From Gnetum montanum (Eukaryota; Plantae; Gnetophyta), in contig MNCI01001762.1 of NCBI GenBank assembly GCA_015680685.1, positions 89,993-153,992 of the forward strand: a stretch of 64,000 nucleotides of DNA, read 5' to 3'. Every line of letters begins with the position of its first letter. Position 1 is the stretch's first letter. The position numbers and the translations under genes are program-made. The notes below the pieces were generated by a model, which did no database searches, was not told the DNA's origin, and saw nothing but the letters and a program-made list of their open reading frames with translations. Positions 7,563-58,700 of the stretch are shown here, one piece after another.

Positions 7563-8579
7563 CTTAGTTTAGCTAAGTGCACTGATAATAGATTGTGAAT
7601 TTATATAAAGTTGTTGTAAAGATAAAAATAAAAATGACTCACTCTTATTCAAAAATGAAAAATAATTATGAAATTAAAATATCAAAGGCATACTGATTAT
7701 ATACACAACTAACAAGACTTCTTTTTATAGGAACAAGTCTCCACCACACACAGGTGAATCGAATCAATGACAAGAGGTACCAAAGAAGCCCTAATAATTT
7801 AGAGTTATCTATGTTCATCTCGATCCTTATAATTGAAATTTCACTCTTATCCTTTATCAAGATGAACCTATGTGCTAGAGGACATGGAAGATAACACTAT
7901 TTTACCTCATGATCGATATATTCCCTTCATGTTGATGGCCAACCTCATCAGATTAGGCATTGTAGTACTCAATGCACAATATGAGGTCTTAGAGCATACC
8001 TATATGGACTATTAGCATATAGATATCCAACATAAGAAATATTGGCACATGGAAGCATGCTATAAGACCTCTAAGGGCAAAAAGATCCCAACATAATTAT
8101 TCTTACAGTAACATAGAGAGTATGAGGATTTTTTTGGACAATCCCAATATGCAAATTCTCCTCCTTTCTTTGAGGAGAACATCCTTCACCAATGGTTACA
8201 ATCAAATTTGGAAAACCTTGGTGAAGGAAAGACAAAGTCTTAGAACCAAGAAATCTCAAAGGATGGAAATTCTAGTCATTCATCTAACGACAAGAAGAAT
8301 GATAAGGAAAATAAAAAAGAGAAATAAAAGAATCATTCTCCTAGTCCTTGTTTCTTATCTTTGTTATCAAACTTTGATAAGAGGAGCCATGGTCAAGATA
8401 AAAGGAGACATTGTCAAGATCAGGATGGAGATTATAGGAGATCCCATTATGATGATAGGAGCCAAGATCAGAGACAACCACAAGAGGAAGAAGAACACCA
8501 CTAGGAATGAAGGCACGTCAGACACATCATAGGCATCATGGCCATGAAAGGGGTCATGGTAAATGATATGACTATGATG

Positions 8580-10736
8580 AGCCTCTACTAGCTACTAGAA
8601 ACATGCTCAATATTTCAGAGGTAGTGAGAATTCCTACAAGGCATCAAAAAGATAGTTGGATTAAGAGGATGTATATGAATAATATCCCTATGCTTGAAGG
8701 AGATATAATGCAAATCCATAAAATCATCTATAGTTTTTTCATGATGCATGTACCTTGAAGAGCATAGAAAATGAATGTTAGAAACTTAAATTATTCCCAA
8801 GAATATTCATTAAATAAGCAAAAAGCTAGTACCGATTCTTGGAATTAGAATCTATTCATTGATGAAGTACCATGTTGGAACTATTCAATGACAAATACCA
8901 AACGTACTTCAAAATGTATAAATTCTAGAGGTGGATCCAAGGATAGAAAGAAGAAAATGATGAGTCCTTGGATGTGGTCCTAGATAGGTAATACTCTCTA
9001 TTGCACTGGTGCCTAGGCCATGGATACTCTTAAAGAGAACAACTTCTCCACATCATAGATCGACTTTGGAATATGACTAATGAAATCCTTGGGGTCTATG
9101 CTCAAGGAAGACTCTTTGAAATATGGACCCATTAGATTTAGAGGCTGATAGACCAGGTGGTCAAAGAAGAGAAGTTAAAAAAGTGTAAGATTGTAGAGAA
9201 GTATAACAAGGATCTCTCCATTCATAAAAGGAAGGTGTGTTTTTATGATTAGAGCATGCCTTGATGAAGTGGTGTAGAGGAAGATCTTGCCAATACAAAA
9301 ATGCCACTAAAATATTAGCTAAGGTTGATAAAATGTGGGACTCCTTGGATGAAAAGTTTAAAATAGCTCTTAAAATTATAGAAGGAAGACTAGAGCAAGA
9401 GGATAGTGGTTAATATAGAAGGAAAAAGAAGAATGCAAGAAGAAGTTACTATAAAAAAAGGGTAAAGCTACAACAGTCGAAGAGGTTGTAGATTCCAAAA
9501 TAGATTATGACAGTTGTGACATCTATCATTATGAACATCTCAAGGGATATTTCCCTATTGTGTCACATTTGTAAGACTCTAGGGCATATGCTGTAAACCT
9601 AAATCTAGCAAAGAGATAGCCACCTAGGTATTTGCCTTATCCACAAGGCAACTATAGTTAGTAGTTCCATCAAATAACATATTATTCGAGTGGAGAAACT
9701 TCTTAACTACATTAGCAATACCAGTAATGGCAAAATGCATAGTCATGTAGGATGCCACCATCATAGCAGTAGTATCCTTATAGGTAGCTAGATCCTTATG
9801 GATATTATGTACAACAAGTTGTATCTCCTCATGACTCATCTAGGCATGTCTACTTTTCTCATCACTACTATCCTTTAGAATATTATAGAGTAACTTCTCA
9901 AAGAAGTGAGTTTCCTTTTTCTTTTCTTTCTCCATATCCCTCAACAACCCCTACATCATTAACCATCACATTATTGCCACCTACTTCACTTATGCAGGAA
10001 GAAATTCTAACATACCCACAACATCAAAATTCTGTGAGGGTAGTAAACTTACTATCAAACATTTGTTCGAGTGATTCTAAATAGAAACCTCATCAGAGGG
10101 AATTCTTTAGAAAAAACAACCATAAAAAAAATACTTGTAGACACCCATGGCTATTAACCATGCTTCATCTACCTCTCAAAGTACCGTTGAGTGGCCTTCA
10201 CACCAAAAGTTCTTGAGTGTCCACATCATCATGTTGATCCACATGGTCACCAATTGGATAAAAGTTGGACACCTTCCTAGGAAATGATCTAATCTTGGAA
10301 GTCCCCTTATCTATTTATAGATTGCAAGAAAGGATCCATCTATGGCTCTATTAGATTCAAGTTCTAAAATGAACTTAATCTCAAAAGAAATGTACAAGAC
10401 CTAGAACCTACCTTCTCTTAAAAAGAGCAACATCAAACTAGAACTTGTAGATTAGCCCATCACTATTTATTTGGGGTAGTTGAGGACATTGTAACCACTA
10501 TGTGTGGATGGTCATATCTTGTAGATTCCCTTGTAATCCACATGGATAATTGTAAGGACTTTCCCATCATTATGGGGAGGGCTTGGCTAAGTACCATAGA
10601 TGCCAATATGGGGAGTAGAGACCTTTCCTTGGAAATATTCAAGGAAAATTAATTTGATAAAGTGGAGGAGAAGAGGATTCCATGCATCACATACAATGAG
10701 ATAGGGTGTCATTACGTATAGAAAATATGAATAGTC
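8580..10736 (+). pseudogene. gag: Decayed gag-protease of Athila-like copy 2, cut at 10736 by a CRM-like insertion
   Basis: Homologous to 420-2600: FFHDACTLKSIENEC*KLKLFPR, knuckle-like CDIYHYEHLKG, protease ALLDSSSKMNLI..PIIMGRAWL. Confidence 0.85.
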
Positions 10737-18324: not shown

Positions 18325-18610
18325 AATCACCCAACCCATGTGTCATTCTTAGTGGAACATTTTATGTGTTTCTTGTTGTTTATGAGTGTTTTGTATTTTT
18401 TTATATTTCTTTATGTTTTTTCTTGATGTTTTGACATGTTTGGAGATGTTTTGAGCATATTTTAATTAGTTTAGAGGATTCTAGGATTAATGGGAACATG
18501 TTTAAAGGTGTTCATATATTCCAAATCTTAAAATGAGCATCCTTAGTTTTGGCCTTGCTAGAATAGGGATCTCCTTCCAAGATAAGTTACCTTGTCTAGA
18601 GTATAGAAGT
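18325..18610 (+). repeat. 3' LTR of CRM-like copy 2, left part (split by the Tekay insertion)
   Basis: Aligns by eye with 10750-11010 (TTTATGTGTT..TTGACATGTTT..TTTTGGCCTTG). Confidence 0.7.
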
Positions 18611-19124
18611 TGTAACATCCCATTCTCAGATGTCGTAAAAACATGTTTGTTTGTCACTTAATTCTTCACATCTAAAGCATTCATAAGCATTATAATAGAA
18701 ACATCATAAAATACTTGATAAATGAATTAATTGGTAAATGAATAACTAGTGCTCAAAATAGAAAAGAAAAAGAAAAAAATTTATTAATAAAGAAAGTATT
18801 GTAATGCCCTCTAGGTTATCTTCTCATGCCACTTAAGCCTTAGAGGTAATCCAACACTACCACGATGGTTAGGCTATCTAGCCAAAGGGGTAATCAGTCC
18901 CTTCTTGTCCTGCTTCACTTGGTTCCCGTTACTTGCCTTTTTTCAGGCTTCACAACTCCATGCTGGCATGACCTCCAAACCCAGCCTTAAATGGTATAGG
19001 CCAAACCCATTCCCGAGGGATACATGAATAGTTGTAACTCCTCATAATGAGGCACCCCTTCATTTGAAGGTTAATTACATTTTTACAATATGTTTCTATC
19101 CTTAACAAAGGATGAGACATTACA
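18611..19124 (-). repeat. 3' LTR of Tekay element
   Basis: TGTAACATCC..GAGACATTACA; 16 mismatches to 28204-28719 in the first 120 bp, mostly transitions. Confidence 0.93.
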
Positions 19125-19140
19125 ATCTACCCTCATTAAG
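19125..19140 (-). promoter_or_regulatory. Polypurine tract of Tekay element (decayed)
   Basis: Minus strand reads CTTAATGAGGGTAGAT immediately before the 3' LTR TG. Confidence 0.6.
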
Positions 19141-19326
19141 CATCCAACTCATCTTCAAGCGCTTCCTCTATATCTAGTTTTTTAGCTACTACTTCTTCAT
19201 TATGCTCCTCAACTTCAGCTTCCTTATTATTCTTATTACCATCTACATAAACAAAAGACTATAAATTATAAAATATAATTTATTACATCATTAATAAACA
19301 CAATTTATAATTTAATATCATGATGA

Positions 19327-22300
19327 TCATTGAACAAGTAGTTTGCTAATAGTTTTATTTTGTAGCTTCTTAGTTTGATGGTTCTTAATTGTAATGGGTT
19401 TAACTTCAAAGCTGACGTTGGATTGCAAGGGCAAAGTATTCCAATATAGCACATATGGCACATCATTTGCATGAAATTTCTTTAGCAAACTTACATGGAA
19501 AATTGGGAGAATTCTTAAGGTTACTAAAAGATTTAACCAATATGCCCCTTCATCAATTCTTTTAGAAATTTCAAAGGGTCCATAATATCTAGGTTCCAAT
19601 TTAGTATATTTTCCAAGTTTAAGAGAGCTTTTGGTAGGTTTTACTCTTAGTAGTACTTGGACTTCCACTTGGAATTCTTTCTTAAGCTAATGTTGATCTG
19701 CATATCACTTATATTTATCTTGGGTAGCTTGTGAATTTTGTTTAACTCTTGTGATAATATTTTTCATTATTTTTATTTCTTCTTCCTTCCATTCCATTCT
19801 TAAGGTTGGATTTACCTAAGTTAGTGGTGTACAGCAGTTACATCCATATACTACTTTGAATGATGTTCAATACATGAAACCTTGATAATTATTGCTATAG
19901 GAAAATTCTACCAAGCATAAGTAATTTTTTCACATTTTCAATCTACTTTCAACATAGCTTTGTAGAATATCTTCTAATATTCTATTCACACATTTAGTTT
20001 TCCCATCGATCTCTAGATGGTAAGTTATGCTAAATTTCAATTGGGTTCCAAGCTCTTTGAAGAAAGTTTGTCAAAATTCACATATGAACTTGGGATCTCG
20101 GTCCAAGGTGATCGATTTTGGACAATCATGCAATCAAAATACTTCTCATATGAATTTTTGGACTACTTCTTCAGCTATGTTTATAGATTTTAAAGCTATA
20201 AAATGTGCCATGTTTGATAGATGGTCAACCACTACCAAAATCAAGTCTTTTCCCTTTTTGGTTATTATCAATCCCACAATGAAATCCATGGTAACATCTT
20301 CCCATTTCTAGGTTGGGACTTCTAGAGGTTGTAATAATCCACTAGGTTTCTTTTGTTCAGATTTGATTCATTGGCATGCTATGAAATTTTTAATGTACGA
20401 GGACACATCATTCTTCATTGTAGGCCAAAAATAATATTTACGTAACATCATATAAGTCTTAATATAACTAAGGTTTCCTATATATGATACTTCATGTGCT
20501 TCACACAAAAACCTTAGTCTCCAATTTCCTTCTAGAATGCACACTCTTTGTCCTTTCATCAATAAATCATTAGAAAAAATTGATATTAAGGCTTAGAGGA
20601 AATATTGGTTAAAATCTTCTTGAAATAAAGATATTCTTTTATTTGATCCTTAATTTCTTATTCCATAGGGGTCATTACCACACCTATCATCAAGTTTCAC
20701 ATTCGACTAAGAGCATTAGCTACCACATTTTGTTTATTGGGAATATATTTGATTTCAAAATTTTATTCATCCAATAATTCTACCCATTATTATTGACGAG
20801 TGTTCAAAATATATTGTCTCTACAAATATTCTAAACTTTTATGATCTATTTTTAGTACAAACCTTTTTTCATAAAGATAATGTCTCCAAACTTTCAGAGC
20901 ATGAACAATTACTAGTAATTCTAAATCATGGGTTGACTAATTTACCTTAGCTTCTCATAATTTATGACATTCATAACATTACACTTTATCTTCTTGTGAA
21001 AGAACTACACTGATTTCTATTCCATAGGCATCCATGGGTACTTTAAATGGTAATTCTTCATTCAGAATTCTCAAAATAGGTGTTGTTGTGAGTAGCATCT
21101 TTAATTTGAGGAAAGCTTTCCTATAGTTTTCATCAAACTTGAACACATGCTTTTCCTATAAAAGGTCAATCAAGGGGACTACTAAAGTAGACTAATCTCT
21201 AACAAAACATTGGTAAAAACTTGCTAAGACCAAAAAACTCTGAACCACTATAGCATCTTTTAGTTCAGGCTAGTCTTGAATTGCACTAACCTTTACTAGA
21301 TCTACTTGTAATCCTTTCTTACAAACTATATGACCCAAATAAGAGACTTCTTCTTTAAAGAGCTCACATTTACTTAATTTAGCATTAAGTAATGCTCCTT
21401 AAGAATTTTCATTATAATTTTCAAATGTTTGACATGTTCTTCTCTTGACTTAGAATAAACAAGTATATCATCAATAAATATTATAACAAAGTGATCAAGA
21501 TATTCATGAAAAATATTATTCATTGATGTCATGAATGTTGCAGGTGCATTAGTTCATCCAAATGGCCTCACAACAAATTCATATAATTCATACCTAGTTC
21601 TAAAAGTAGTTTTCTCAATATCTTTCTCTTTAATCCTTATTTGGTGATAACCTGATTTTAAATCAATCTTTGAAAAATAACATTCCCTTGTAAGTTGGTC
21701 AAACAAATCATTAATTCTAGGTTAAGGATAAGTATTTTTAATAATCACTTTTTTTAATGCCCTATAATCGATGTATAATCTTAATGTACCATCTTTCTTT
21801 TTAATGAATAAGACTAGTGCATTCCAAGGTGGTATGCTAGATCAAATTTTTCCTTCTTCCAATAATTGATCTAATTGTACTTTCAATTCTCTTAATTCAG
21901 AAGTGGAAAATCTATACAGGGCTTTTGAAATAGGTTGTGTACTAGGAAAAATATCAATAGCATGCTTGACAATTCTTTTTCAAGGCAGTTCTCTAGTTTT
22001 ACCAAATACTAAATTTTTATATTCCTCAAGTTCTTTTGGAATCTCAATATATGAAGATTTCTAAGGTTGAGTTACTTTGACAATCAACATCATAACACCC
22101 TTTTTAACTAATCTTTTGGCTTTTTTGATGATTATCATAAGAATTTATTTTGTTGTTCCTACCCTACTTAGAACCTTGACTCCATTAATGGTTGGAAATT
22201 TTAAAATACGAGTGCCAAAGTGGGTAGTAATATCAAATTTTTTTAGGGAAAACATTCCTAAAATTGCATCAACATCACCTAGTTTAAATTTAAAGAATTC

Positions 22301-23827
22301 ATCAACAAAAGACATGTCTTACAAAGTGAAGTTAATTTCTTCATACTTGGTGTGCTTACTCATTATAGTTCCATCCATAGGTTATATCTTAATAATTTTC
22401 TTGAAATATAAACTTAATTTCAATAAATTAATTAACTTTGAAGAAATAAAGTTATCACTAGCACCACTATCAATCAAAAATTTTATTTATTTACCTTTAA
22501 TTGAACCTTCAAAAATCAATAAAGCAAATTAAAATTTATGTAAACCTGATTTAGTTGATGTAGATATCTTCTTCAAGACTATGGTGGTGGTTTGGATTTT
22601 TCCTTTGTTCATGTTTGGGTTGGGTTTTTGATTCTTGATTTGATTGGTCCTTTGTACCTTTGCTCATAGTTTTGGACAATCTCATTTGAAATAATCTTCA
22701 CCACAAACAAAACATCCTATCTCTGATTGAGCTCTTTTGGTTGGTGTTTCTTCTACCATTTCTTGTTAAAGGATAGCTCGTATCTAATTCAATTCTTCAT
22801 AATCCTTATTAATTCTATAGGCTTCATCAATTTCTTGAGGATTATGTGCTCATGTCTAGGGACATAGTTATGCATGTAATGCACCAATGAGCTTTGAAGC
22901 TAATTGTCCCTCATCCAAGTGGCTTACATATCGAGAGAGATAACAAAATTCCTTGTAGTAATCTTCTATAGATCATCTTCCTAATCTTAAGGAATCAAAT
23001 CTCATTTTGCACTCTTTAAGAAAAGAATTGGGTACAAATTTTTGTTCAAACTCTTGATAAAAGTTAAACTAATTTGTAATCAAACCTTAAGATCTCAATC
23101 CATTCTACCATGTTTCCATAAGCCCTCTTAAATATAGGGAGATGACTTCTAAACATTCTTGAATTAACAGATTCAAGATATCAAAATAAATTTTCATTCT
23201 ATCAAGCTAGTCTTTTGCCTTGGCACTGGATCCAGGGGCTCCATCATAATGATCTAATTTTACCCTCTTGGCATGAACTTGTGTTAGTGATTCTCTGGGT
23301 ATATTATGCCAATTCTTGTGTCCTTCAATTTTGGTTTCTACTCTTTGACCTAAAGAAGGGATATTAGTATCTTGGTGACCAGTAGGTGGGGGTTGGTTTC
23401 AGTGTAAGTCCCTAAGGAAAAGTTCATCTCTAAGTGAAATGTGGCTAGGATTTGAAGGTTTAGTGAGATGGTCAGTTAATTGTTTGATGGAGCCTGCTAA
23501 GGAATCCATCTTTCCTTGCACATCTAACCATTTATTGTTTGAACTTTTAGATAATTTCCTAATTTCTTTAGACATATTCTACATATCTATTTTGAAACCT
23601 TGATTTGACTGACAAAACTCTTCTTAAACGCCCCTGATCTCATTAATTTGAACCTTAAGAGTATTCATCTGGTCATTGACTTGGATCTCCACTGCTCTCT
23701 AATGTACTCTTTAGGTTTTGAACATTGATAGGTTGAAGAAATTAGACATGTTAGAAATCCTTGGTCTCAATGGCCCTTTTTATGGTTCTTAAAATAGTTA
23801 ATCGGTTGAAGAAGTTGAAGTTTTCAT
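19327..23827 (-). pseudogene. gag-pol: Decayed gag-pol of Tekay element
   Basis: Knuckle GCFVCGEDYFK*DCP; protease FLIDSGASDNFIS; [38 protein letters not shown]; RNase [21 protein letters not shown]; integrase SGLLQPLEVP, KLEPRYYGPFEI, PIFHVSLLKK; start of a chromodomain EVKPITI..LLVQ. Confidence 0.92.
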
Positions 23828-24040
23828 GGACTTCTACCCAACCACCGAATCCTAATTATTTTGGAACTTTAAATAATGTATTAAAAGGTAATTTTCTATC
23901 ACCTAGAAGCTAAATTTGACTATTCCATTTGATCTAGAAGGTCCAATTCTATGTGAATTATTTTTCGTTTGGTTGAAAATGGACTCCAAATTCCAAAGTT
24001 GTGGCCTTTTTAAGTTTGTAAAAACTTATGTGATTTTCGA

Positions 24041-24106
24041 GACTTCCCGAGAGGTCACCCATCCTAGTTCTACTATAGATCTAGCATGCTTAATTATAGA
24101 ATTTTT
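24041..24106 (-). promoter_or_regulatory. 5S rRNA-derived fragment spanning the Pol III internal control region (box A / IE / box C)
   Basis: GACTTCCCGAGAGGTCACCCATCCTAGTTCTACTATAGATCTAGCATGCTTAATTATAGAATT matches the reverse complement of plant 5S rRNA (GACTTCCCAGGAGGTCACCCATCCTAGTACTACTCTCGCCCAAGCACGCTTAACTGCGGAGTT). The 5S ends are absent. Confidence 0.85.
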
Positions 24107-24464
24107 ATTCTTGTTATTACCAAAGCACAAAAATCAAATTTTACAAATTATTTTGTGCACTTTTGATTTAAACCAACATGTTGATGATAGAAATTTTGAA
24201 TTTCCCATCAGTTGACAAAAATTTCAAAATTTCTGTCAATTGTCAAAAAATTTCAAATTTCCTATTGATTGATGAAAAAATTATTCAATCACCAAAGGTA
24301 GGGGTAGCTACTCAATAGGGACAACAATGAGGTAGGAAATGTGCATGAGGGCATCAGTAGGCAAGGCAAGAAGGTGCACAAAGGTAGTGGCTGGAAAAAG
24401 TGCACGTTGACAATGATGGCATGAAGTTAATAGGGAAGGGGATTATGCTAGTTGGTGTAGCGCA

Positions 24465-24585
24465 GGCCTATGCTGCCCCTTTCTAGGACTCATGAAACCC
24501 TCCTTATGACCTACATGGCCCTTTCTAGGGCCTACATAGCCCTTCATAGGGCTCACATGATCCTTTTCAAGGCCTATGTGGCCCA
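24465..24585. repeat. Degenerate 21-bp tandem repeat (about 6 units)
   Basis: Units such as GACCTACATGGCCCTTTCTAG, GGCCTACATAGCCCTTCATAG, GGCTCACATGATCCTTTTCAA. Confidence 0.7.
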
Positions 24586-24770
24586 AAACGGGGTTCATGC
24601 AGCTAATGTTTGGATGGCACAGCTCAAGCGAGGCCTATGTGACCTAAACATGTGTCTATGTGGCCCTGGCAAGGGCCAGCATAGCCCACCAAGGAGGTAG
24701 TGCTATGCGTAATTTTTGGGGTTCTGGCGTAGAAAAACGGTCATTATCAGCAGCACTAGAGTGCAATAGA

Positions 24771-24935
24771 GGATGCCTGTAATCCATGATGCTAGGAATG
24801 CCTATAATCTCTAGGACTAAGAGGTGCCTATAATCTGCAGCACCAAGGATGCCTATAACTGGTAGCTTTGTTATAGCACCACAAGTGCCTGTAATCGGTG
24901 GCATCGTTAAAGCACCAAGGATGCCTATAATCCAT
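24771..24935. repeat. Array of six TGCCTRTAA(T)C motifs, spacing 25-36 bp
   Basis: Copies at about 24774, 24799, 24825, 24850, 24886 and 24922. Confidence 0.8.
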
Positions 24936-25704
24936 GGTGTAGGGGGGACAATGCAACTACGGCAATGTGGTAGAGGTAGTAGTGAGATGCATAGCAATGG
25001 AGGCCAACGAACGATGTAGTAGGCAATGCTAATGGCAAGTTGGGAGGTAGTGGGTGGTAGTAAAGCATGACACGGGGGCAATAGAGCATGGTGTGATGAC
25101 AATGGAGCATGGCGATAATCAACAGGTGGCAGTAGGTAGGTACCAGATGCATGGTAGCAAGTGACTGGCAACTGGCAGTTGGTGGTTGGTGAGTGATGGC
25201 TAGTGGCTAGTGATTGGTGACTAGCAACTAGTGGCTAGCCTTGGGCCACCACTAGTGGGGCCAATGCTGTTGCTGGTAGATATGGTCACCCTGGCACTTG
25301 AACATGAACCATATACAGTTAGGAGCAAAGGTTCCTTTTCTTAAGAAAATTTTATTATTATTATATTTTTTAATTAAAAAAAATAATTGGGCTCGGGGTT
25401 GAACCCACAACCTCTTACTTCTTTTACAAATTAAATTTAAAATTTTTTAAAAAACATTTTTTTAGTTTTAAAGTACACGTAACCCAAGAAATGCCATATC
25501 TCCTAATTTGTAAGTTAGATTTTGATAAAATTGATAACGTTGGAATCATCTTGAAGAGCACTATGCATTGAGCAAAAGATAATGCTATTTTGGTTGACCT
25601 AGTAATTATAAAATTACAAAAATTGGACATTGGCCCTACTTAATTATTAATTAACTTAAGTTGATACTTCCTCTTTACTCTTACTAAGATTCTTGTTGTT
25701 CTTT

Positions 25705-25712
25705 TATAAATA
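25705..25712 (+). promoter_or_regulatory. Putative TATA box of the antisense accessory gene
   Basis: TATAAATA about 120 bp upstream of the ATG at 25830. Confidence 0.45.
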
Positions 25713-25829
25713 CATGGAAGAAGTCTTTGCCCATCATAGCACAATATTGGAAAAATATTGGAGGATTTAATCAATGGAGAAGATTGAAAATTTCTACTAG
25801 CAATGCAAAGGATTTTAACCATCAAAATC

Positions 25830-28034
25830 ATGACCCCAAAGCATCTTGCTCAAGCTTCTTATCAAGCTCCATCTCAAGCTCAAACTCCTTTAGGTAGCTT
25901 TGTGTCCATTCTTTTGCAGCAAAATAATGTAGTTACAGCTTCAAATTGTGTGCATAATTGACTTGGAAAGGAAGAGTTTTAATATCTTACAACTTCACAA
26001 TTTTTTAAATTATTTATCTTACATGTTTTCAAGGCAACATATTGCAAAAGCTTAATAGTTGAATGGTGTAATCAATAGAATAAAAATGGAAGTTCTATTT
26101 CATATTTAGTTTTTGAAGCACTAACAATTAGCCTTGCTGAAATCTAAATAGTATTTTGTTTTTAATATAGGGAGGATCCTTTAATTCCCTTGATTTTCTC
26201 TCGTAATTTTAAATTATTTTTCCAAAACGAATTATTTGATTATGTTTTTGATTTTTCTATCTATAAAAGTCAAATTTTTCATGGTGATTTTATCTATGAA
26301 ATTCACTTTGAATTATGTCAATTCATTCATAGAAAAGTCTTATGGCATCAATCCTAGGCCTTTATTAGTGTCTATTTCATATATATACTTCATGGCACTA
26401 AAAATTACAGAGTTTATGATTGGTCCTTATTTTTCTTCCTTGTACAATGGCATGAATGACACTACTACTACCAAAAAAATCCCTAAAATACTTATCTCAT
26501 ACATTGTGTACCCTTTTCATGTCTTTAATCCTAAGTTGCAACCCTACCAACAAACTTTTTAGTCATTATAATCTTCATTTATGTCCTAAGTTTCTTGAAG
26601 AGGATAGAATTATAAAGAGTAAGATCGAGGATGGCAAGAAATGTTAGATGGTTTTTTAGCAGGCCAGAAATCAAGAGGGAAGCAGCAAGGTGTGTGTGTG
26701 TATATATATAATTCTTATTGTTACTTACATCTTTTTATGTATTTGACAATGTATTCTAGGCTACAGAATGAACTAATTCAAAGTGCCTAGGCTAGAGTTA
26801 CATAGGTTGAGGATGTTCAAGGTGCTTCAACCTTTGTAGGGTTTTACCACAATAATAAGTCACACTTGCCAAATCCAAGGTATATATATATATATAATAT
26901 CCCAGTTTATTATTTTACTTACTTTTCTACTAATTCTTTTTATAGAGGCAACATACTAGACAAGGTTTTTCCAGCCCAATAGTTATAAGACAAAAAACCC
27001 AACAAAAAACCCAAAAACAAGCTCAACAACAAAGTACAAGATCGAATAAGTAAAAAAGAACTAGAGGTAAGTTTTAATTATTTTAAGGTTTGCATACTTT
27101 CCTTTTTGTCTTCTTTTATGATGTTGATCCTATTCATTTCATAGATGTCTCTACATTGAACGTACTTTATTTGAGAAATGGAGAGAGATGATGTAGGCAC
27201 TAGTTTTGAACAAACTCCTATTTCTTCATATCCCATTCCTCCATCTAGATTACCATGCATGCCTTTGATTCTAGTGACACTAGATTCCTTTCCATAGGTG
27301 ATGCCAACACTAGCTTCTATATCTATTCTAGTAATTTCTTCTTTCTCTATCTCGAGTTTTCATTATTTGATAGAACACATAGTTATGACTATCAAAGAAG
27401 AACTTGTGCTACTTCAACATCTTGGCCAATGAATTTCTAATAACAAACCCTGCTACTCTATTCGCAAGAATGTATACCACATACTAGAGTCCTAGTCATG
27501 CGACATTGAGAAAGTCTATGAATGAGTACATGATGGCATTCCATCATCCTTCCATCTAATTCTTGAGGATGCTCTGAAAGTTGTTAAAGATCTAGAGCAA
27601 CTCTAAGAAGAATTGAAGAGTGCTACATGCCTAGCTCACCATCTACAATCCTGTGAATGGTTTCATCAAATTAATAATGATTGAATTTAGGTAAGTAGTT
27701 TTTATTCTTTTCTCTTCTCCTTTTATTCTTTCTATTGAATATTTTTATTCATAACTTATAACTTTAATCTTGTTTTATGTAGAGGAAAGAAAAGGAATGG
27801 AAAAAAGACATGGATGATCAATTGATTCAAATGGAGATGCTAAAAACCCAACTTAAGAGAAAGGAGGAATTAGTGGGTATATCAAGGGATGCCACTAAAT
27901 ACATCAAGAAATTATGTGATGGGTTGGTGGGATGCAAGGCATGGCTCAGCAAAATGGATGCCACTGATGAAGAATGGGAAGCACAATTGAAGATAGTCTC
28001 TGATCTCCTCGACCCATTCCATCGAAATAAATGA
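25830..28034 (+). pseudogene. Spliced antisense accessory gene inside the Tekay leader (5 exons, about 632 aa; PMD-like N-domain, C-terminal coiled coil)
   Basis: Exons 25830-26689, 26760-26879, 26946-27066, 27145-27690, 27783-28034 total 1899 nt (633 codons). Four short AT-rich GT-AG introns with concordant phases (2,2,0,0). About two dozen in-frame stops, no frameshift needed. Confidence 0.78.
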
Positions 28035-28190
28035 TCACTATTATGTTTTCTTATTCCTTTTATTTCACATCTTCCCTACTCTTGCATTCTGCCTTTTCCC
28101 TTACATGTAATCTCCTTAGATGTACTTTTTTTTATAATAATAATAATAAAATAATATTTTTTTCCACTTTGGTTCTCGATTCCTAATTTT

Positions 28191-28201
28191 CTTTGATACC
28201 A
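28191..28201 (-). promoter_or_regulatory. Primer binding site, tRNA-iMet type, of Tekay element
   Basis: Minus strand TGGTATCAAAG, 2 nt from the 5' LTR end. Confidence 0.88.
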
Positions 28202-28203
28202 AA

Positions 28204-28719
28204 TGTGACATCTCATTCACAGATGTCATAAAAGCATGTTCATTTGTCACTTAATTCTTCACATTCATGACATTCATAAGAATTGTAATGGAAACATCAT
28301 AAAATACTTAATAAATGAATTAACTAGTAAATGAATAAATGGGTACTTGAAATAGAAAAGGAAATGAAAAAATTTTATTAATAAGAGAGAGTACTATAAT
28401 GCCCTCTAGGTTATCTTCCCATGCCACTAAAGCCTTAGAGGCAATCTAGTACTATCACCATGGTTAGGCTATATAATTGAAGGGGTGATCAATCCCTTCT
28501 TTTCCTACTTCACTTGGCTCCTATTACTTTCCTTTTTCCAAGCTCTACAACTCTATGCTAGCATGACATCCAAACTTGACCTTAAATAACATAGGTCAAA
28601 CCCATTCCTGATGGATACATGAATAGTTGTAACTTCTCATAATGAGGTTTCCCTTCATTTTAAGGTTAATTACATTTTTATAATATGTTTATGCCTTTAA
28701 CAAGAGACGGGATGTTATA
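28204..28719 (-). repeat. 5' LTR of Tekay element
   Basis: TGTGACATCT..GGGATGTTATA, a direct repeat of 18611-19124. Confidence 0.93.
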
Positions 28720-28882
28720 GATGTCTACCATACAAGTAAGATGTCTCTTGTACAATCTTGCAACTATGGAAAGATATCTATACCACATGCAAGACATCTT
28801 CTCTAGACCTAAGATGTCTACACCACCTACAATGCATGTCCTCTATGAACTATTTGCTTTTGGTTGGGACATGTTCCCATCA
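28720..28882 (+). repeat. 3' LTR of CRM-like copy 2, right part
   Basis: AGATGTCT/AGACATCT sub-repeats like 10985-11140; possible terminus ..CCCATCA. Confidence 0.55.
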
Positions 28883-36590: not shown

Positions 36591-38930
36591 CTTGTTAACA
36601 TACTTTGATAAGGGAAGATGAAGACCAAGGAATCATGATAGGGAAAGGGGAAGGAATCATGTGAGACATACTAATAGAAGAATATATCTTGATGAAAAGG
36701 ATAGAAAAAGGGAAATTAGACATGAGAGAAGAGCAATATGAGCATCAAAGTGATCATTACTATAATAGATATTATGAACCAAAAGACTATGAAGAACTTC
36801 TATTAGCAACCCAGGGCATGATTAACATTAAGGAAGCAGTGTATATACTTACCAAACATCTAAGGGATACTCATGTTAAGTCATTTCATATGAATAACAT
36901 TCCAAATTTTTAGGGAGAATAGAATACAAATTCACAACATTATCTTTAAGCTTTCTATGATGCTTGTGCCCTATAGAATATAGAGAATGATTGGTAGAAA
37001 TTAAAGTTTTTTTTCAAAACACTCATGAAAAAAAGTAGAAATTTGGTACAAATCCTTAGAATCAAAATCAATAAAAGATGAAGTACCATGCTAGAGCTCT
37101 TCAATGATAAGTATCAACCTATTCCAAAGTGTCAAACTTAAGGAAATAAATCCAAAGATGAAAAAAAAGGACACATAAGTCCCATAATGCGATAATGAGT
37201 AAATGCTATTCACTATTACCTACATGCCTAGGCCATAGATTTTTTTCAAAAGGAAAAACTACAACATATCATTGATGGGTTAAGAAACAAAACAAAGGAG
37301 ATCCTTGGAATATATTCTTAAGGAAGGTTATTAGAGATGAAAACTCATCAAATTTAATAGTTGGTTCAAGTGACAAAACAAGAATCAGTACAAGAGTGTA
37401 ATAGAGACCCTACTATCAAAAAAAGAGATGTGAGCATATGTGAGACACAAGAAGAAGAAATACTAGAAGACATAATCTAATGAAAGGCTCTACCTATTTA
37501 GAAATTAGTAAATGATATTGCAGCAAAGGTGGAGAAAAGGTGGAATTTTGTGGATGAAAAGTTTGCAACAACACTTAAGATAGTGAAAGAGAAATCTAAA
37601 CAAGTAATTAATAGAAATAAGAATAGGAAAAAGAAGAGGGATAATGAACATAAGCATTATCTGAACAAAGGAAAAGTTGTTGTAGTAGAGGAGGTTATAG
37701 ACTTAAGTAATGAAGATGATAATAATTGGAATCTATGCTATTATGAACATCCTAAGGGATGTTGTCCTATTATGATCCACTTAAAAGAGTCTGAGGCATA
37801 CATACTTAATGTAAAAATTTTCAAAAAAAAAATCCTAGATGATTATCTTATCTACAAGATAATTACAAATAGTCCTTTCAATAATCATACTATTCATGTT
37901 GGGCTTAGCCTCAAAAATAAAAGCAATACCAACAATAATAACAACAATCACAATTTTGGTAGATGTCATTGCTAAAACAAGAGTATCTATATTGATAGCC
38001 AAATCCTTAGGAATATTATGTTCAGCATCCTATATCTCCTAATAATAATTTTGTCCAATTTTATTGTAACTATTATCTAGCTAAGTACCATAGACCTACA
38101 ACCCCATGCATGGAATCATAACCTTATATGTCTCTATCCCTAGCAGGTCATTCTTAAAAAGCTTCCAATCGTTTACTACCAGTACCACCACAAGTAATAT
38201 AAGAAGAGCTATCAACACAATTGTAATAAAAAAGAGGTAACTAAGTAGTTAGTATACATAGAGTAGATAATACCAACAATATTACATGTAAATCTAGAAA
38301 GCTTCCTTTCTTTTAGACAAGTCTAGAAAAGGTTGGTAGAGTAAGGACTCTATCCAACCTTATTTCTTGTACGAAACTTCATCCTACAATCATCATACTT
38401 TGACAACAACCAAATTAAAATTTTAGAAATATCATGTTAACTCATACAATATCAAATTGGATAAATGTATAAACTCTTTCTAAGAAAAGAATAGATTGTA
38501 CAAACCCTCTAATTTATTTGCAAATTGCTGAAAATTTACTATGTAAAAGGTTTTGCAATCAATTTGATATCTCAAGAAACATACAAGAAATGGAACCTAC
38601 TGCCATTAAAGAAGTAACATAATACTAGAGCTTGCAAACTAATCAATAATCATTTATTTAGGATAGGTAGAAGACATGGTGAACATTATTAATGAATGAT
38701 CTTATCCATCAAATTTTCTTGTGATCGATATGAAGAATGATAAGGAGCACTTTCCTATCATTATGGGGAGAGCATGGCTTGCCACAAATGATGCTAAGCT
38801 AGGAATAAGAGATTTATGCTTGAAATGTTTCAATGAAGATGAGTAAGGAGCCATATAGTTGTAAAGAATTCCATGCATTACTTATGATGATGAAGGGTGT
38901 AGTTGTGAACCAAAATTTAAGAATGTTAAC
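36591..38930 (+). pseudogene. gag: Decayed Athila-like gag-protease fragment
   Basis: MNNIPNF..AFYDACAL*NIENDW*KLKFF, WNLCYYEHPKGCCPIMIHL, protease end FPIIMGRAWLATNDAKL; homologous to 420-2600. Confidence 0.82.
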
Positions 38931-49750: not shown

Positions 49751-51305
49751 TTCTTATATCCAAATATCTTACAATTAAGCTCTTCCATCATGACTTATGC
49801 AAGCCCCAATTCTCATAAATTATTCTAAAAATTCTCACATTCTCACAAGTTTAATCATAATTTTTTAGAAATTTTTTCTCACAAAATTCTTTGCATTTTT
49901 TCATGGTGTTCTAGCCATTTTGATTTTTTTTCTTGGTAGAAACAGGCCATTTTTCTAGAATCTAGTCAAAAAGAGTTGATAAAATTAAATTTCAGTGAAA
50001 TCCCATAGCATGTTTTTAGTTGTTTACATGTGGATCTAGGGTTATTTTGCTGTTTTTGCCTTGGTAAATAAGATTTTTAAAAGTAGACTTGCTTTTTTAG
50101 ATGCTTTTTCTAAAATATCAGGTTGAGCCCATTTTCTTAGATCTAGGGCTAAGGATTCATTAAAATTAAATTCTAATGGAATCCTACCCCCTTACATTCG
50201 ATGCTTTTTGTGAATTAGATGTTGGTTTGTCTATTTTGGTCATAATCTATGGTTTCATAATGTTAAATTTGTGTTTTTTTGGTGCAAAAAAGAAAGTTAT
50301 GTTGTGTATTTTTTATTATAAAAATGGCTTAAGTTTTACAAAATTTAATGTTTTTGGTTTTTATTATTGTGGCTATGGTCTTGTTCAATTTGGAGCTATA
50401 TTGATCAAGTTGGCTGTGCAACTGGTGTTTATGCCATTTTTCATATTTTCATCAACATTAATGAACTTGTTTTGAAAAAGTAGCTAAGACTTTGAATTTA
50501 TATTAAGTATGGGTGCATGGGGCTCAATTCAAGATTTCAAAAAGTGGTGGAATGACTCCATTTGAAGCCCGAATGAATTTTTGGTAAATTTTTTTCTAAC
50601 CTTGCACAAATGGGGGTTAATGGTGATAGCTACATTTTCGCTATTTTTGGCTATGTTTTGTATAACAATGATTACATGTTTTTTTGTTGCAATGGTCATG
50701 GCTAGAAAGTTCATGATTTTAGGATTCCTTCCATGGTGGAATCACTAAAATCGAGGATAAGATGCATTTTTTATGAATTTTGTAATAAGGCTATGTTAAT
50801 TGCTCTAAATTTGGTTGTAGCACTTTACCCCTTTGAGGATGGATGTGGTTGTCATAGTTGGAATTGTCAACCTCCATGCCCTAGGGATTATAAATTATGT
50901 TGTAATTTTTTTAATGTATTTTTAAGAAAAAGAGTTTTTTACAATTTTTAGTAAGTTTTTTTTATTTATGTCTATTATGGCCACTTTTTCTATGTTTTGA
51001 TGCTTTCTCTAAATGCATGTTTTGATCTAAGGCATAATTTTGGTTGTGATGTTTTGGTTATAATAGTTTTGGCTATGATATCAAGTCTAGGAGAGGTTGT
51101 AATAATATATATTTTGTTTTGAATTTTCTTAAACAAATTTGAATCAACACCCTAGAGCTTTTTATAGAAGCTAATTTCACCCCCAACTAGGATGTGTAAA
51201 ATTTGATAAGAAGTTACAAGTGTTGGAATGTTATGTTAATGTAGTTTGTTTGTTTTTTTTAATATATTTTCCCCTTGTAGGGTCTTGCTGAAGCCGGTGC
51301 TCATT

Positions 51306-54300
51306 ATGGTTGAGCTTGTTGGGATTCCCTACTATCTTGATCAACCTACAAACCATACTTCTCTTCCTGACTTGGCATTCAAGAAGACATTAATGTGGTT
51401 CTACCCAGAGGCAAGGGATTTTCTTGCCTATCTTCTCTAGTACTTTAGTGTGATGATGTGGTTACACTTGTCTAAGGAGGTGGTTGCAATCATTGTGGAG
51501 ACCTTGTTACTTGCATCTACATGCCTGGTTCCCTGGTTTATAATCTATGGGCCAAAGACTTAGGTAGTAAGAGAATTGGTGGATTTCATCAGTCCATGGT
51601 ACCTTTTAAATATCTGGACCATGCTAGAGTATTCACAATACAACATGAATAATATTCTACTGGTGGCATAAAGAGTTCATTCCTTATTCCAAAATCCTTC
51701 AAGAACTATGTATCGGTTACAAGGGTAAGCACAACTATTAGAGGTTTTAATATTTTGGTTTTATCTCATCTAGTATTCTCTTTTCTAACTTGTTGGTTTC
51801 ACACATATCTTACAAGTGTAGGGTCAATGATCAAAGTTTAATCAAGAATGATCAAACCCTAATGGTAGCCTATACCACATTGAATGAATTCACCAAGGGT
51901 CCCAAGATTAGATATGTTGTTTTTGAATAGCTAAGAGGGGAGTTTGATGAATACCCAACTAGATTTGGACTTGTTTACAAGAAGTGTGTGGTTGCCAAAA
52001 TAACACATAGTTGGTGGGCGGCCCCTAAGGATATCAAAGATATGGGTATTACTGCTGGGACATCCACACAAGCTTCTTTAAGCAAGAAGAAGAAAAGTGA
52101 GAAATCAGGTATGTCGTTATCCTAAAGGTTTTATGGTTACTTAGGCTTTAATTTTTTATGGCCAAAACATAGTTGTATTGATACCAAACACTTGTCTTTT
52201 TCTTATAGGGCCTTCTAGTCTTGTAGATGTTATCATACCTCTCACCAAATGTTCTGTGAAGAATCTCATGCTAAATTTCATTGAGATGGGACCAACATAG
52301 GAATGGTTAAGGGAGAATGCATCTAAAGACATTCAAGCAAACATTGATCATGCAGGATTGCTTAAGATCTTCATGGTGCCCAATCTTGTCATCCCTTCTA
52401 CAGAGATGTTGAATATCATCAACTCTTTTGATAAAAAAATTGATGTGTTCCACACCATAGTACAAGGCCTATATATTGCTATTGCCATTATTAGTTCGTC
52501 TACCTTCCATGAATTATTTGGTGTTCCCTTTGACAGGATAGTAGTTGCCACCAAATTAATGAAAGAGGTAGGCCACCATGTAGAGGTTGAGGAATGACTT
52601 GGTGCTATCAAGGGCCACTTTGGTCTTGCTTGCAGTAGCATTATGAACCCTAATGCAAAAGAATCCTATCCCCTATTCAAATTTAGGGTATTTCCTAAAT
52701 TGTTGTCACAAAAGAAGCTGATTGGCATTGCACAGGGATGGACCTTCAAGAAAGTTATGAAAGAGGATACTCATTTTAACTAGGCAATTTCCTTAGCTAT
52801 GAGCCTCAAAGAGGAAATCCTCAAAATTCGTGTAGACTCTTCCATAATAGTCCACATGCACCATGCGTTTTTTGTAGGCTATTTGAAGAGGTTTTCAAAA
52901 TTTTTGGTGGTTAAGAGATGTGGATCATGGATGTGCTAGGACCCATGACAACTTTCTAGGCCTTGGATAAATCATCTTTATCCAACCATGAGGGCTTAGA
53001 AGCCAACATAGGGTATGGGAGATTCACTATCAGTGACCACCAAGAACCTTGATGTCAATCAGTAGGAATCCCATGACAGCATGGAAAAGGCACCTCTTAC
53101 ATTTCTACCAAACATTAAGAGGGCCCAATGGTTACATGCTAAAGTTGTTGGAGTAGCTAGGGCTAGCCTAAAGAGGCCCATAGAAGAAGCACCACCAGTA
53201 TCAAAGCCACCCTCCAAGCAAAAGATTATCTGCAAGATCCCACACTTGAACTAGGTAGTCACAGGTACACTTCAACTATGTTTTCTTTTCTTTTGACATT
53301 GTTTTTGTTCCATGGCTATTCATGTTTACTTATCTAATGATTTTTGGTTGTAGATCAATGACAAAACCTAGTAGCCTAAGTTGTCACTGCAAAAGAAGAA
53401 TAAAGACAAGTAGTGGATGCACATAGATGGGTCAAGAAGGAAGAGTAGAAGTGTAGGATCATGGTAGAGGAAAAATAGAGGCATGCAAAGGAGGCACTTT
53501 TGCAACAAGATATAGGTGATCTTGACACCGTGTTTGGTGGGTCACTACCTAGGGAGTCTTCGATCAAAATCCTTGATGATGATGAAGATGAAGAGCATAG
53601 GTATGCTTATTCCCTACATGTTATTGCCTACAATATGATGTTTGGTTTTAGAGTTCTTACTTATTCAATAATTATTATGCTTATCGTAGTTCCTAAGCTA
53701 GCAACAAAGGCCCTTGTATCTGACTTTTACATGAAATCATGGATAGAGATCCTAGACAAGATAGAATTTATGCATGGGATGGAAAAGGACATCATTGGTT
53801 AGATGTAATAGGTTGCACCCAAAATTGGTAAGAACTATGTTTTGATATGCCTTAGTCATTTTGCTATGAGATGGATTTTATGCTATAGCTATATTGTATA
53901 TTAGGTTTATGATTATTATCTTTTGTTATTTTTAGTGCCATCAGTCACATGGGATCTAGCCCAAGACATGGAGTTCGACTCCTTATCTAAACTTCCTTTT
54001 GAGACCACACATGTTCCCTTGAAGCTTTACGAAACTACCACTAATTTAGTAGTTTTGTATGCTAAAGCTTCATGGGAGATTCAGAGTGTAACGAATCCCT
54101 ATGGGAATAAGTTATGGTCTTGAAGAAGGAAAATAAAAGGCAAGTTGAGAGGATGTATGATCTCGAGGAATGTAAAGCCTTTGTGAATGCCCAAGTGGAG
54201 AACTCAGGGGCCTTATAGACCAAAGAGCTCACATGGACCTACTACTAGTGCACTATCTATGATAAGATTTCTCTTTCTTGAGAGTTTCATGAGCAACAAA

Positions 54301-54990
54301 TGCAGATGGACTTGATCTCTCAAAGGACACAGGATTGCAAGGATTATTGTGCTTGGGTCCTGGAGTGGGGTAAGACATAAAGGAACCAAAAATGCAAGTA
54401 TAAGGTCAATTGAGATGCTATTTGAAATGGCTGAAGAAGAAGACAACCAAACAAAAAAAGAGAGAGATGTTTATTCAGGGCACTCAGACTGAGTATGCTT
54501 TCAACCTCTTTGAAAGCACTCTAACAATGGTTGAGTCTCCTACTCCACAAACCACCATAGCTGTAGATGAGGTTGCTATGGATACTATCTCATGGGAGCC
54601 ACCATCATGGACGGATGTGGATAGAACCAACATCCTCACAAGCATTAATTTAGGGGACAATGATTGGGCTAGTATGACAGAAGACAAGATCCTCCAACGT
54701 TTGGAGACTAGCCTTCCCCATCTTCCACAAGAGTTCGCAGAGCCCACTTCTCCACAGGTATGATGGGATTTATGTTTTTCATTTAAGTTTTAGTTTTTAT
54801 TATATTTTTATGTTTCTTGTTTTGCATGGTTCATGTTACAATTTTGGTTATGATGATTACTACTTAGTTATGTGTTGCTATCTCATAGGCATTTTATGAT
54901 ATTGGTGGCCCTAGTGGTGTAGGTGATGATGATGATGATGCACCACCTCCTCCTCCTTTGCATCCCCCCTTAGCACCATTAGATGCATGA
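51306..54990 (+). pseudogene. Spliced gene (7 coding exons, about 1020 aa; central PMD-like domain, coiled coil, acidic/Pro-rich tail), antisense to the adjacent Tat/Ogre gag
   Basis: Exons 51306-51724, 51822-52108, 52209-53264, 53354-53600, 53690-53827, 53936-54757, 54889-54990. Six GT-AG introns of 89-131 bp; five junctions keep frame and one (53601-53689) needs a 1-nt indel. An upstream acceptor lies at 51280. Confidence 0.8.
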
Positions 54991-55354: not shown

Positions 55355-55528
55355 ATGACTAATTTAAGGCCATGGAGGGCCGTGATGCCAGTTTAGAGTC
55401 TCAGTGGACTACGATGCTAATTTAAGGCCTCGGTGGACCATGATACCGATTTAAGGCCTTGGCAGGCCATGATGCTAATTTAAGGCCTCAATAGGCCATG
55501 GGTTTGCCAGTTTTAGGCCATGCCAGGT
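55355..55528. repeat. 29-bp tandem repeat, about 6 units
   Basis: Consensus near GATGCTAATTTAAGGCCTCGGTGGACCAT; unit starts at 55384, 55413, 55442, 55471. Confidence 0.9.
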
Positions 55529-55728: not shown

Positions 55729-58700
55729 CTAAGCTACATGGCTATCAGCTACATGGTCATAAGGACATGGGGTGGAAGGGTTAAGGGGTACTACATTTGT
55801 GCACACTCTTCCTAATCTTTGAAAGATTAGGGAATCAGTTAGATCTACTCTACATAATTTTGTATTCATCATTACCTTCACTAATGATTTTAAATGGGAG
55901 TTCATCCCATGGTGCATCTTGCTACCCATCATTATTGTTATTGGCTTCCTATTTTCTCTTAGGTTGTTGGATCTTGTGATTGGGAATTTCTTCTTGAAAC
56001 TTCACTTTAGGCCCCTGCTCTATGTTGATGTCATTAATTGCTAGGGGCATTGAGTTATCACCATGAATGATGATCTCACCTCCTTCATAAGGAAGGTGAA
56101 TCTCTTGGTGGATAGGAGAAGACATAGCTCGTAACTAAGCCAACCAAGGTCTTCCTAGGATAAGGTCAAACCCAGCTATCTCCTCCACCACCAAAAAATT
56201 TGTAGTCATGGCGAATGGCTTCCTTGCCACAAAATCTAAGGAGATGGGCCCCCTGATAGCAACCCTCAATTCATTAAAAGACTTGAGAGCAGCTATCAAT
56301 GTTTCTTGTATTTGCTCTGTCAACCTGAATCATTCAACAATGGTCCACAGGATGACATTAGTAGCAACACCATCATCTACATGCACTTGATGCATGTTTA
56401 ACTACCCTATGTGTATGATTATGAATAGAGGAGCCCTAGTAATTTCACCATCCTAAGGATTAACCTTAATTTTGCTATCAAAAAATGTTTTAGGTGTTGA
56501 CTTCCCCTCCTTGGATGTGGGAGGACCAATCACTACATTGATGGATTCCTCGTTAGTGGGGATATCCTCACTAATAGGGATAAAATTCAATATTTTGAGT
56601 AATGCCTCACGATGTGTGGCGGAAGTCATGAATAGGCCATACAAGCTTAGAGTAGTATTATTTTGCTTAAGAGATTATCTTACCTAATCTATAGCACTAA
56701 GGAAAATTTTCTTGTTGGCCATGGGCTTATCATCCCATTTGTGCTTCACTTCTTGCATGCATCCCAAAATGTGTACTTTGATCTTAGGTTGTGATTGTTG
56801 GGACTTCTCCTTATTCTTCTGTCCATGAGCTTTGGGATCATCCTATGGTTTGTTGTTTAGAGTGGGTTGGGTAGAGGAGGTCATGGGTATAGTCGATATG
56901 GGACCGGGATTTGGTGGGTCCACATCCTTTTGTGCCTCCATCTACTTGTCACCCTTATTGTGGGGCTTTTGCTTTTATTTTTTCTTTTGCTTATTTGAAG
57001 CTTTTTGGTTGTCAATTGTTGGTTGTGAGGAAGATGTGGTAGGATTGGCTACCATAGGAGATTGTTGGGTGGTCTTATTAGTTGGTGAGGCTATGGCTAG
57101 TTGGGCTATGGTGGGTTGGGGTACCTTCATGATAAATGGTTCCCTGGGAGGCACTTGTGATAGCACCCTTATGAAAAAACAAGATCTTGACCTAGTGGAA
57201 GCTAAAGAAGCCCTTTCACCATAAGGGGATATGCGAATCACAAATGTTTCTCTTGAGGATCTTCAAATATCATCTACATCGAATGTCAATATAATATATG
57301 TAGTATTGCTAGCATTTAGTGAGCCTTTCTATAGCTACATCGATTGATTTTAAGGTTGGATAGGGTTGGATGCATCTAAAACTAGCTCTCTTGTATCTAT
57401 CATCTTTTGCAAATTATCCTTCAGTGCAAGGTAGAAGTTTATGTCATAACTAGGTAGTTGGTGATAGTAGAAAAAGTAGTCTATCTTGAAGTATTTAGGT
57501 AGTGGTGGATCATCTTTTGTTGCTCTAGTAGGGTCCTTGGCTATTTGACAGAGTCTATCATGTTTCTTTCATAAAGCTTCAGACATCTATTTGTATTGGA
57601 TACATTCACTTTTCAATAGTTGATCTAATAGCTTTAATGGTTTTAACGGTAGTGTAGTGTATTTAGACCTATCCTTCCTAAAATTTGGTTTGGTCATTGT
57701 TGATGTGGTGGGCCTAGAGGCTGAAGGTTGGTTATCATAGTTATTATTGGTGGGAACCTTGGGTGGATTGGTTCTTGGCCCCTAGCTAGTGGTCTTAGCC
57801 TCTATAGTTGCTATAGTAATATTGTTATGTTTTCACTTCTCCTTGTCTCTCAGTGTAGGTTTTTGTATGCTACATAGGTTGGGTCATGACTGACCTCTAT
57901 AGCATCTTCTATATTTTTGATTTGGGAGAATGCTTGGCTAAGTGACCGTAGGTCAAGGTAGTAAAGTTTAAACCTAATAAAGTCATTAACTACCCTCTTA
58001 AATATAGCCAAAAGGTGAGTTTTGGCTATGAGCTCTAGTATTTTGTTCATGAGTCCATTCCATCATTGGATGAACTTCTATACGAGCTCAAGGGATCCCT
58101 TCTTAACCTTCATGAGTTGGTCAAGCATGGTATTAGGCTTCAAGCTATATTTGAAGTGATTAACAAACTAAGCTATCAAATCTTCAAGGGAGGATATAAA
58201 TCCTCTAGGTAATGTGTGGTACCAATCAAGTGCTTTCCTAGTCAAGGACACATGAAAAATCCTCATGATGGTATGAGGCCACAGCTGCAATAGCAAGCAC
58301 TTATAAGGTGAGCATTATGGTCACCTTCTCCATAGTGTTTGCTAAATTGAGGGATAGGGACACCAAGAGGAAGTGTCAAAGGTAGGACCACAGGACTGAT
58401 AGGATCATCCTGGTAGAAGTCCATGATCTTTACACTTTGAGATGTAGAGGATTTAGCCTCTTTAACTTCTTTGTCAAGTCCTGGATCATTTAGAAGGCTT
58501 GGACCAGGTCTTGCAGTGGTCCCCTTGGCTGTGAGGCTTACACATATGGCTATGATGTCTATTGCTAGGATTGTGGCCTCACTATGTATTGTATGACAGA
58601 AGGAAGGGGTTGCATTATGGTTGTGGCTTGTGGGCCAAACAAAGAAAAGAATGTTTGTGCTAGTACTTGAGGCATAAATAGGATAAATGGGGTATGTGAC

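Follow-up and report, generated by a model that had tools for sequence, protein, structure and literature searches.

A decayed four-intron gene antisense to gag-pol in the leader of a Tekay-like chromovirus from Gnetum montanum

The 64-kb stretch of Gnetum montanum DNA analysed here, referred to as the window, contains a 10.1-kb Ty3/gypsy element on its minus strand (18611–28719), and opposite the leader of this element, on the plus strand, lie the exons and introns of an antisense gene (Table 1). The element has an LTR pair, a 5-bp target-site duplication (TSD; GAAGT/GATGT, equal at four of five positions with one mismatch), a primer-binding site (PBS) that we take from its motif to be of the tRNA-Met type, a purine tract (PPT) at about 19125–19135, before the 3' LTR on the element strand, and the domain order gag-PR-RT-RH-INT, all of which place it in Ty3/gypsy. 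The gag ATG stands at 23827, and Pfam recognized Retrotrans_gag (E 6.5e-8), RVP_2 (1.3e-6), RVT_1 (1.3e-28) and SH3_Tf2-1 (7e-16) in the polyprotein; RH and the INT core were seen in translation. The LTRs, 84% identical, differ by 68 transitions and 16 transversions (K2P 0.19), indicating that the element is old. A search of Rfam across 18500–28800 gave 0 matches.

Table 1. Coordinates of the host element and its antisense gene in the window
Feature	Position	Strand	Remarks
3' LTR	18611..19124	-	514 nt; 84% identity to 28204-28719
gag-PR-RT-RH-INT polyprotein	19125..23827	-	decayed, with frameshifts and stops; half a type II chromodomain, acidic tail
GC-rich leader stretch	24300..25300	.	50% GC; short tandem repeats, periods 21, 26, 36
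TATA-like site named in the preliminary description	25705..25711	+	consensus match; one of four between 25600 and 26400
Long first exon, 5' part	25830..26630	+	may be UTR, intron or frameshifted exon
Minimal first coding exon	26631..26689	+	in-frame ATG, context GAGG-ATG-G; frame score uninformative
Intron 1	26690..26759	+	70 nt, phase 2
Exon 2	26760..26879	+	120 nt; model frame scores best on plus strand
Intron 2	26880..26945	+	66 nt, phase 2
Exon 3	26946..27066	+	121 nt, lysine-rich, putatively NLS-like; 12-bp tandem repeat 26990-27033
Intron 3	27067..27144	+	78 nt, phase 0, donor AG/GTAAGT
Exon 4	27145..27690	+	546 nt; S/P/T-rich first third, predicted helical rest; 9 stops
Intron 4	27691..27782	+	92 nt, phase 0, donor AG/GTAAGT
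Exon 5	27783..28034	+	83 stop-free codons and stop; three predicted helices
3' UTR-like stretch	28035..28190	+	pyrimidine-rich, AATAAA at 28145, ends against PBS
PBS	28191..28201	-	abuts the antisense gene's 3' UTR-like stretch
5' LTR	28204..28719	-	516 nt; TG.. end

The RT core is 64–68% identical to the best 25 of 120 plant Ty3 polyproteins, which carry no lineage labels, and we presume from its motifs that the element resembles Tekay. By its PBS, TSD, size and half chromodomain it fits a Tekay-like chromovirus. A tRNA-Met PBS is given for 74% of Tekay elements in a survey supplement (PMC6317226 MOESM5), the TSD is 5 bp long (four of five positions equal) and the size lies within 5.6–20.7 kb, features that also fit Reina, Galadriel and CRM and are not exclusive to Tekay. 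The type II chromodomain is described by the motifs (K/R)-X-(L/T)-R-X-(k/r) and EEXTWEXE (PMC3350952); here, KKLQNK occupies the place of the first with one mismatch, the frame is broken after LLVQ, EEXTWEXE was found in no frame, and Pfam gave no Chromo match. After the chromodomain break, on the minus strand at 19135–19330, an AT-rich run of about 85 nt ends in the acceptor-like TTTATGTAG, followed by about 35 acidic codons and a stop just before the PPT; no clear splice donor was seen nearby, and the site may serve a subgenomic RNA as a splice acceptor on the sense strand. Across the whole 64-kb window, CG reaches 0.14 and CAG/CTG about 0.4 of the expected frequency, which suggests that the genome is heavily methylated at CG and CHG and fits a plant whose genome is large. 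Another retroelement family is present on the plus strand in three copies (410–2567, 8568–10709 and 36785–38900) that are 66–70% alike, and RT-like stretches of this family lie near 3228, 13919 and 15746.

Four plus-strand GT-AG introns had been proposed in a preliminary description of the locus, and we recovered all of them at the coordinates given there. Judged by the general splice consensus, each begins with GT and ends with YAG; they are 66–92 nt long, 74–83% AT and 51–58% T. A strict filter (AG/GT..YAG, 60–110 nt, T at least 0.5), the thresholds of which were chosen after the introns were known, returned six candidates on both strands of the 64 kb, and four of the six are these introns. 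Because the thresholds had first been set in this way, we varied them over 24 settings: in 24/24, four to five candidates persisted within 1.2 kb (26600–27800), with 2–30 candidates on the rest of the plus strand and 0–27 on the entire minus strand. The exact 8-mer AG/GTAAGT has two occurrences in the window, which are the donors of introns 3 and 4.

Removal of the introns reproduced the 633-codon frame described previously, with 24 internal stops and a terminal stop and with the junction peptides as quoted; the frame of exons 2–5 was confirmed, and the 860-nt first coding exon of the same model was not. Exons 2–5 (345 codons) contain 13 stops versus 24 expected per frame from dinucleotide shuffles, a deficit with P 0.02 for the best of three frames and P 0.009 for TAA alone. 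Their density of 3.8 stops per 100 codons compares with 3.7 in gag-PR-RT, 3.0–5.0 across the polyprotein region (19125–23827) and 8–11 in the off frames. Exon 5 is free of internal stops (P 0.011); the deficit in exon 4 by itself is not significant (P 0.36). A score of three-base periodicity, derived from gag-pol of the element itself, favoured the model frame over the other plus-strand frames in every one of exons 2–5, though marginally in exon 3 (2.4 vs 2.1 bits), and their join reached 13.7 bits, above 3000/3000 null joins drawn from the rest of the window (mean -9.9, maximum 13.3). Codon-position periodicity is marked in exons 2–5 (chi2 P 5e-5), with G1 0.26 exceeding G2 0.12 as in pol, and values of P < 0.02 were also found in three of seven control stretches. 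CHG retention is 0.15 in the gene vs 0.14 in pol. Decay equal to that of pol suggests that both were probably intact at insertion, although the comparison discriminates weakly because the whole window is CG/CHG-depleted. Together, these data support the presence, between PBS and gag, of a decayed protein gene that has introns and runs antisense to gag-pol.

The part of the first exon upstream of the ATG at 26631 behaves differently in its two halves. For the 860-nt exon as a whole, the stop deficit is borderline (P 0.05) and TAA is not depleted (P 0.53). The 5' portion, 25830–26170, favours the 633-codon frame by 4.5 bits, whereas 26171–26630 scores better in another frame (0.7 vs -3.7 bits), which is open for 122 codons (26194–26562) and matches no Pfam family above the cut-off; an extra acceptor-like site stands at 26170. 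A start at 26631 yields a 365-codon model with 13 stops and is as plausible as the 633-codon model, and the first exon may be a long exon with frameshifts, may contain further introns or may be a short exon behind a UTR. TATA-like sites occur at 25607, 25705, 26262 and 26380. Both the length of 633 codons and the TATA box at 25705 favoured earlier are doubtful, and the promoter of its own that was attributed to the gene has consensus matches only and was not confirmed. At the other end of the gene, the AATAAA stands 46 nt before the PBS.

The leader of the element measures 4363 nt and has 92 ATGs, a count inflated by deamination. Such a leader would hinder scanning, which implies that gag needs an internal start or splicing, or else argues for a later insertion. 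The GC-rich stretch at 24300–25300 sits between the gag start and the 5' end of the antisense gene and is a candidate regulatory region. It includes, on the element strand, a 192-codon open frame (24656–25234) that has no Pfam match. It is also less CHG-depleted than the pol and gene region (25/95 vs 46/337, Fisher P 0.005), in a comparison that is post hoc and confounded by composition.

By composition, the predicted product consists of a basic patch in exon 3 (10 K+R in 28 residues), an S/P/T-rich stretch and then amphipathic helices, with a heptad periodicity that is not significant (28/300 shuffles). The structural model of exon 5 has three helices (pLDDT 75, pTM 0.43), and that of exon 4 is of low confidence (pLDDT 37.5). 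Foldseek found no match to the exon 5 model at E 0.001; its best VIA Z was 8.1, among unrelated helical bundles, so the matches of this modelled fold are generic and point to no specific fold. No homologue emerged from protein databases: exon 5 gave 0 matches at E 0.001 against 1.84 billion representatives and 0/51 candidates in a word-seeded search of longer proteins, exons 2–4 read through with X gave 0/323 candidates in a word-seeded protein search, and none of five exon pieces matched a Pfam family above the cut-off (best E 0.02), the long first exon being compared with Pfam only. Domains of the Tat/Ogre/Retand type (PMD, Transposase_28, DUF390) were likewise not detected by Pfam, with a sensitivity lowered by the decayed, short pieces. 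Three of 221 metagenome candidates passed the search, and all were rejected: a 19-residue match on contig L001 was judged to be chance, as were, from the alignment alone, 35-residue, 40% matches on L002 and L003. The 2.2-kb contig L001 itself carries an open 531-codon frame (452–2047) with a Walker-A-type motif, which we take to be primase-helicase-like.

Sister copies of the element were found neither inside the 64-kb window nor in metagenome and viral contig collections; in the viral contigs, exon 5 gave 0/17 candidates, the LTR had no match, and one RT locus matched at 38%. We also searched 50.6 million RNA reads from four of eight runs with the same species label, covering about 26% of runs X4–X6 and about 2% of run X1. 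Thirty-two reads align to 25700–28100, four of them 90–95% alike and 28 less than 90% alike; none reaches 95%, indicating that they derive from related loci and not from this one. The reads are few, all but about one fit partially, X5 and X6 represent one sample, and some reads lie on low-complexity sequence. The 12 oligo-dT reads fall only in bins from 26672 to 28048, with none in the 12 preceding bins, and the 20 X1 reads spread over 17 of 30 bins, among them intron bins and 26186–26428; 25700–25861 and 26186–26428 were matched by related loci in run X1 only. Among these 32 reads, from libraries of unknown strand, there were no splice joints, loose ends or start sites, which we do not count against splicing, and no links to LTRs. 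This distribution suggests a diverged multi-copy family that has introns and whose conservation or expression is highest in exons 2–5.

A second decayed multi-intron gene was observed on the plus strand at about 51280–54990, with long near-open frames and intron-like donors near 52109, 53265, 53601, 53828 and 54758. It faces a minus-strand stretch resembling gag and protease (55800–59200; Retrotrans_gag E 0.003, below the cut-off), and a 29-bp tandem array (55359–55500) lies between the two. None of nine pieces of this gene matched a Pfam family above the cut-off, no likeness to the antisense gene at 25830–28034 was seen, and no LTR pair was found; it may belong to a DNA transposon or be a further gene carried in antisense by an LTR element.

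Extra genes upstream of gag have been catalogued in this lineage. In the supplement of a survey of 782 Tekay elements, an eORF-5'R is listed for 12% and an eORF-5'F for 33% (PMC6317226 MOESM5), so the suggestion that an antisense gene here is not known as a normal Tekay feature was wrong as to position and orientation. The gene described here shares with the Tekay eORF-5'R a Tekay-type lineage, a place upstream of gag, antisense orientation and an orphan product. However, those eORFs were found with getorf as unbroken ORFs of at least 250 codons (PMC6317226), whereas the longest exon here has 182 codons and there are four introns, making the gene invisible to a method based on ORF length. The 5' aORF of sunflower Tekay 13-2 encodes 402 aa with an NLS, three coils and disorder and is kept in 500/523 copies (PMC11728184). 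This aORF and those of rice RIRE3, RIRE8 and Retrosat-2 share a length of about 400 aa, a basic NLS-like patch, few helices, disorder and the lack of a Pfam family; they differ in being given as ORF(+), the article showing 0 occurrences of introns or splicing (PMC11728184), and the likeness seen is one of architecture. Antisense orientation, together with the internal promoter and nuclear product predicted for the gene here, is shared by Grande gene23, which has its own promoter, and by the aORFs of RIRE2, Retand and PvRetro13, some of which are SMC-like helical; according to a 2020 review, antisense aORFs are mostly located 3' and have their own promoters, and the same review calls for a search for antisense and spliced transcripts (PMC7264820). 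The brtn of Boty-like fungal Ty3/gypsy elements is also an antisense extra gene (PMC7264820, PMC8365987), but it is fungal and lies between pol and the 3' LTR, unlike the gene here, which is in the 5' leader of a plant element. No protein-coding gene with several introns, lying in antisense within a plant LTR element, turned up in the literature searched, which included few subscription journals. Position and orientation are already known for Tekay, and what that literature did not show is their combination with introns in a plant chromovirus.

In the reading to which we assign a probability of about 0.6, an old Tekay-like chromovirus holds in its leader a decayed antisense gene with four introns that is likely an accessory gene of the element family itself, with residency in the element family being the best reading of one decayed copy. 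Like an element-borne eORF-5'R, the gene lies inside the LTRs, upstream of gag and in antisense. The genomic RNA is the strand opposite to the gene, and the spliceosome is blind to introns in that orientation; introns carried in antisense therefore remain unspliced and are copied by reverse transcription. An internal promoter would drive transcription toward the 5' LTR from a start somewhere in 25.6–26.3 kb, and the spliced mRNA would end near the AATAAA at 28145, just short of the PBS. Its product is predicted to be a regulator that is nuclear, mostly helical and at least about 365 residues long; with a basic patch, an S/P-rich linker and a helical C-terminal half, it would act in the nucleus on the element's chromatin or RNA. 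A role as nuclear regulator is likely by analogy of architecture with the sunflower Tekay 5' aORF and Grande GENE23, and could be that of an anti-silencing, export or integration factor; as some 2 kb of the genomic RNA would be complementary to the mRNA, antisense control may be added. The gene would have been functional at the insertion of the element and then have decayed together with it.

The strongest rival reading, which we consider unlikely, is that a DNA transposon derived from a Helitron, MULE or CACTA element brought a gene or gene fragment with introns into the leader of this copy soon after the copy had inserted. Short multi-intron genes are typical of the accessory genes and captured fragments of such transposons, and an entry of this kind would account for the multi-copy reads and for a leader as unwieldy as 4.4 kb. 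On either side of the segment, near 25.35 kb and 28.14 kb, stands a 16-bp inverted match, and the window also harbours the second multi-intron gene. However, the 16-bp match is (TAA)n-type low complexity and no longer TIR is present, although ends could have decayed; Pfam detected no transposase remnant, and by eye no hairpin-CTRR end lies between stop and PBS. The 3' end of the gene is flush against the PBS, leaving no room for a transposon terminus. At 10.1 kb the element has a normal size, the Tekay mean being 11.5 kb, with about 7.3 kb remaining if the segment is taken away.

It is improbable that the gene is a passenger, a piece of a host gene captured by the element lineage in antisense with its introns and carried unused through several rounds of replication. 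Plant LTR elements are documented to capture genes (PMC7264820), and a 5'-truncated capture would explain the first exon, as the doubtful 5' end suits a fragment. Against this, no host homologue was found for exon 5 among the 1.84 billion representatives or in the word-seeded searches, transduced pieces are described as usually sense and in few copies (PMC7264820), and the stop density is no higher than that of pol, which argues that the frame was still intact at insertion. We regard as very improbable the idea that the spliced antisense RNA is a non-coding regulator that pairs with genomic RNA, the frame being a relic: multi-exonic antisense non-coding transcripts are reported from Arabidopsis Ty1/copia families, but those start in the 3' LTR and are non-coding (bioRxiv 10.1101/2024.04.02.587720), whereas the frame here is kept across three junctions and exon 5 is free of stops. 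A chance arrangement of GT and AG in AT-rich decayed DNA, for which the 24 internal stops and the initially post hoc intron thresholds might speak, is largely refuted by a cluster that holds in 24/24 settings, AG/GTAAGT donors found nowhere else in the window and a join that outscores 3000/3000 nulls.

Beyond the reading of an accessory gene of this family, we tentatively raise a broader scheme that we think doubtful as a whole: the gene may represent a hidden class of multi-intron antisense accessory genes in plant chromoviruses, kept intact during retrotransposition by their backward orientation, overlooked by surveys based on ORF length and including an anti-silencing or transcriptional regulator in this case. 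In such a scheme the gene and gag would stand head-to-head, separated by a GC island that carries repeats and is less depleted of CHG, the product of the gene would be a sequence-specific regulator of its own element, a retrotransposon counterpart of VANC of VANDAL, and the second multi-intron gene, facing the gag-protease stretch, would be another member of the class.

Because the copy is dead and single, the accessory gene favoured here points the way to a family before it can give a mechanism, and it offers a testable candidate for chromovirus self-regulation. Extra genes in plant LTR retrotransposons have been counted, in the survey cited, from unbroken ORFs of at least 250 codons (PMC6317226). 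A four-intron accessory gene suggests that these counts may fall short, above all in large, heavily methylated genomes.
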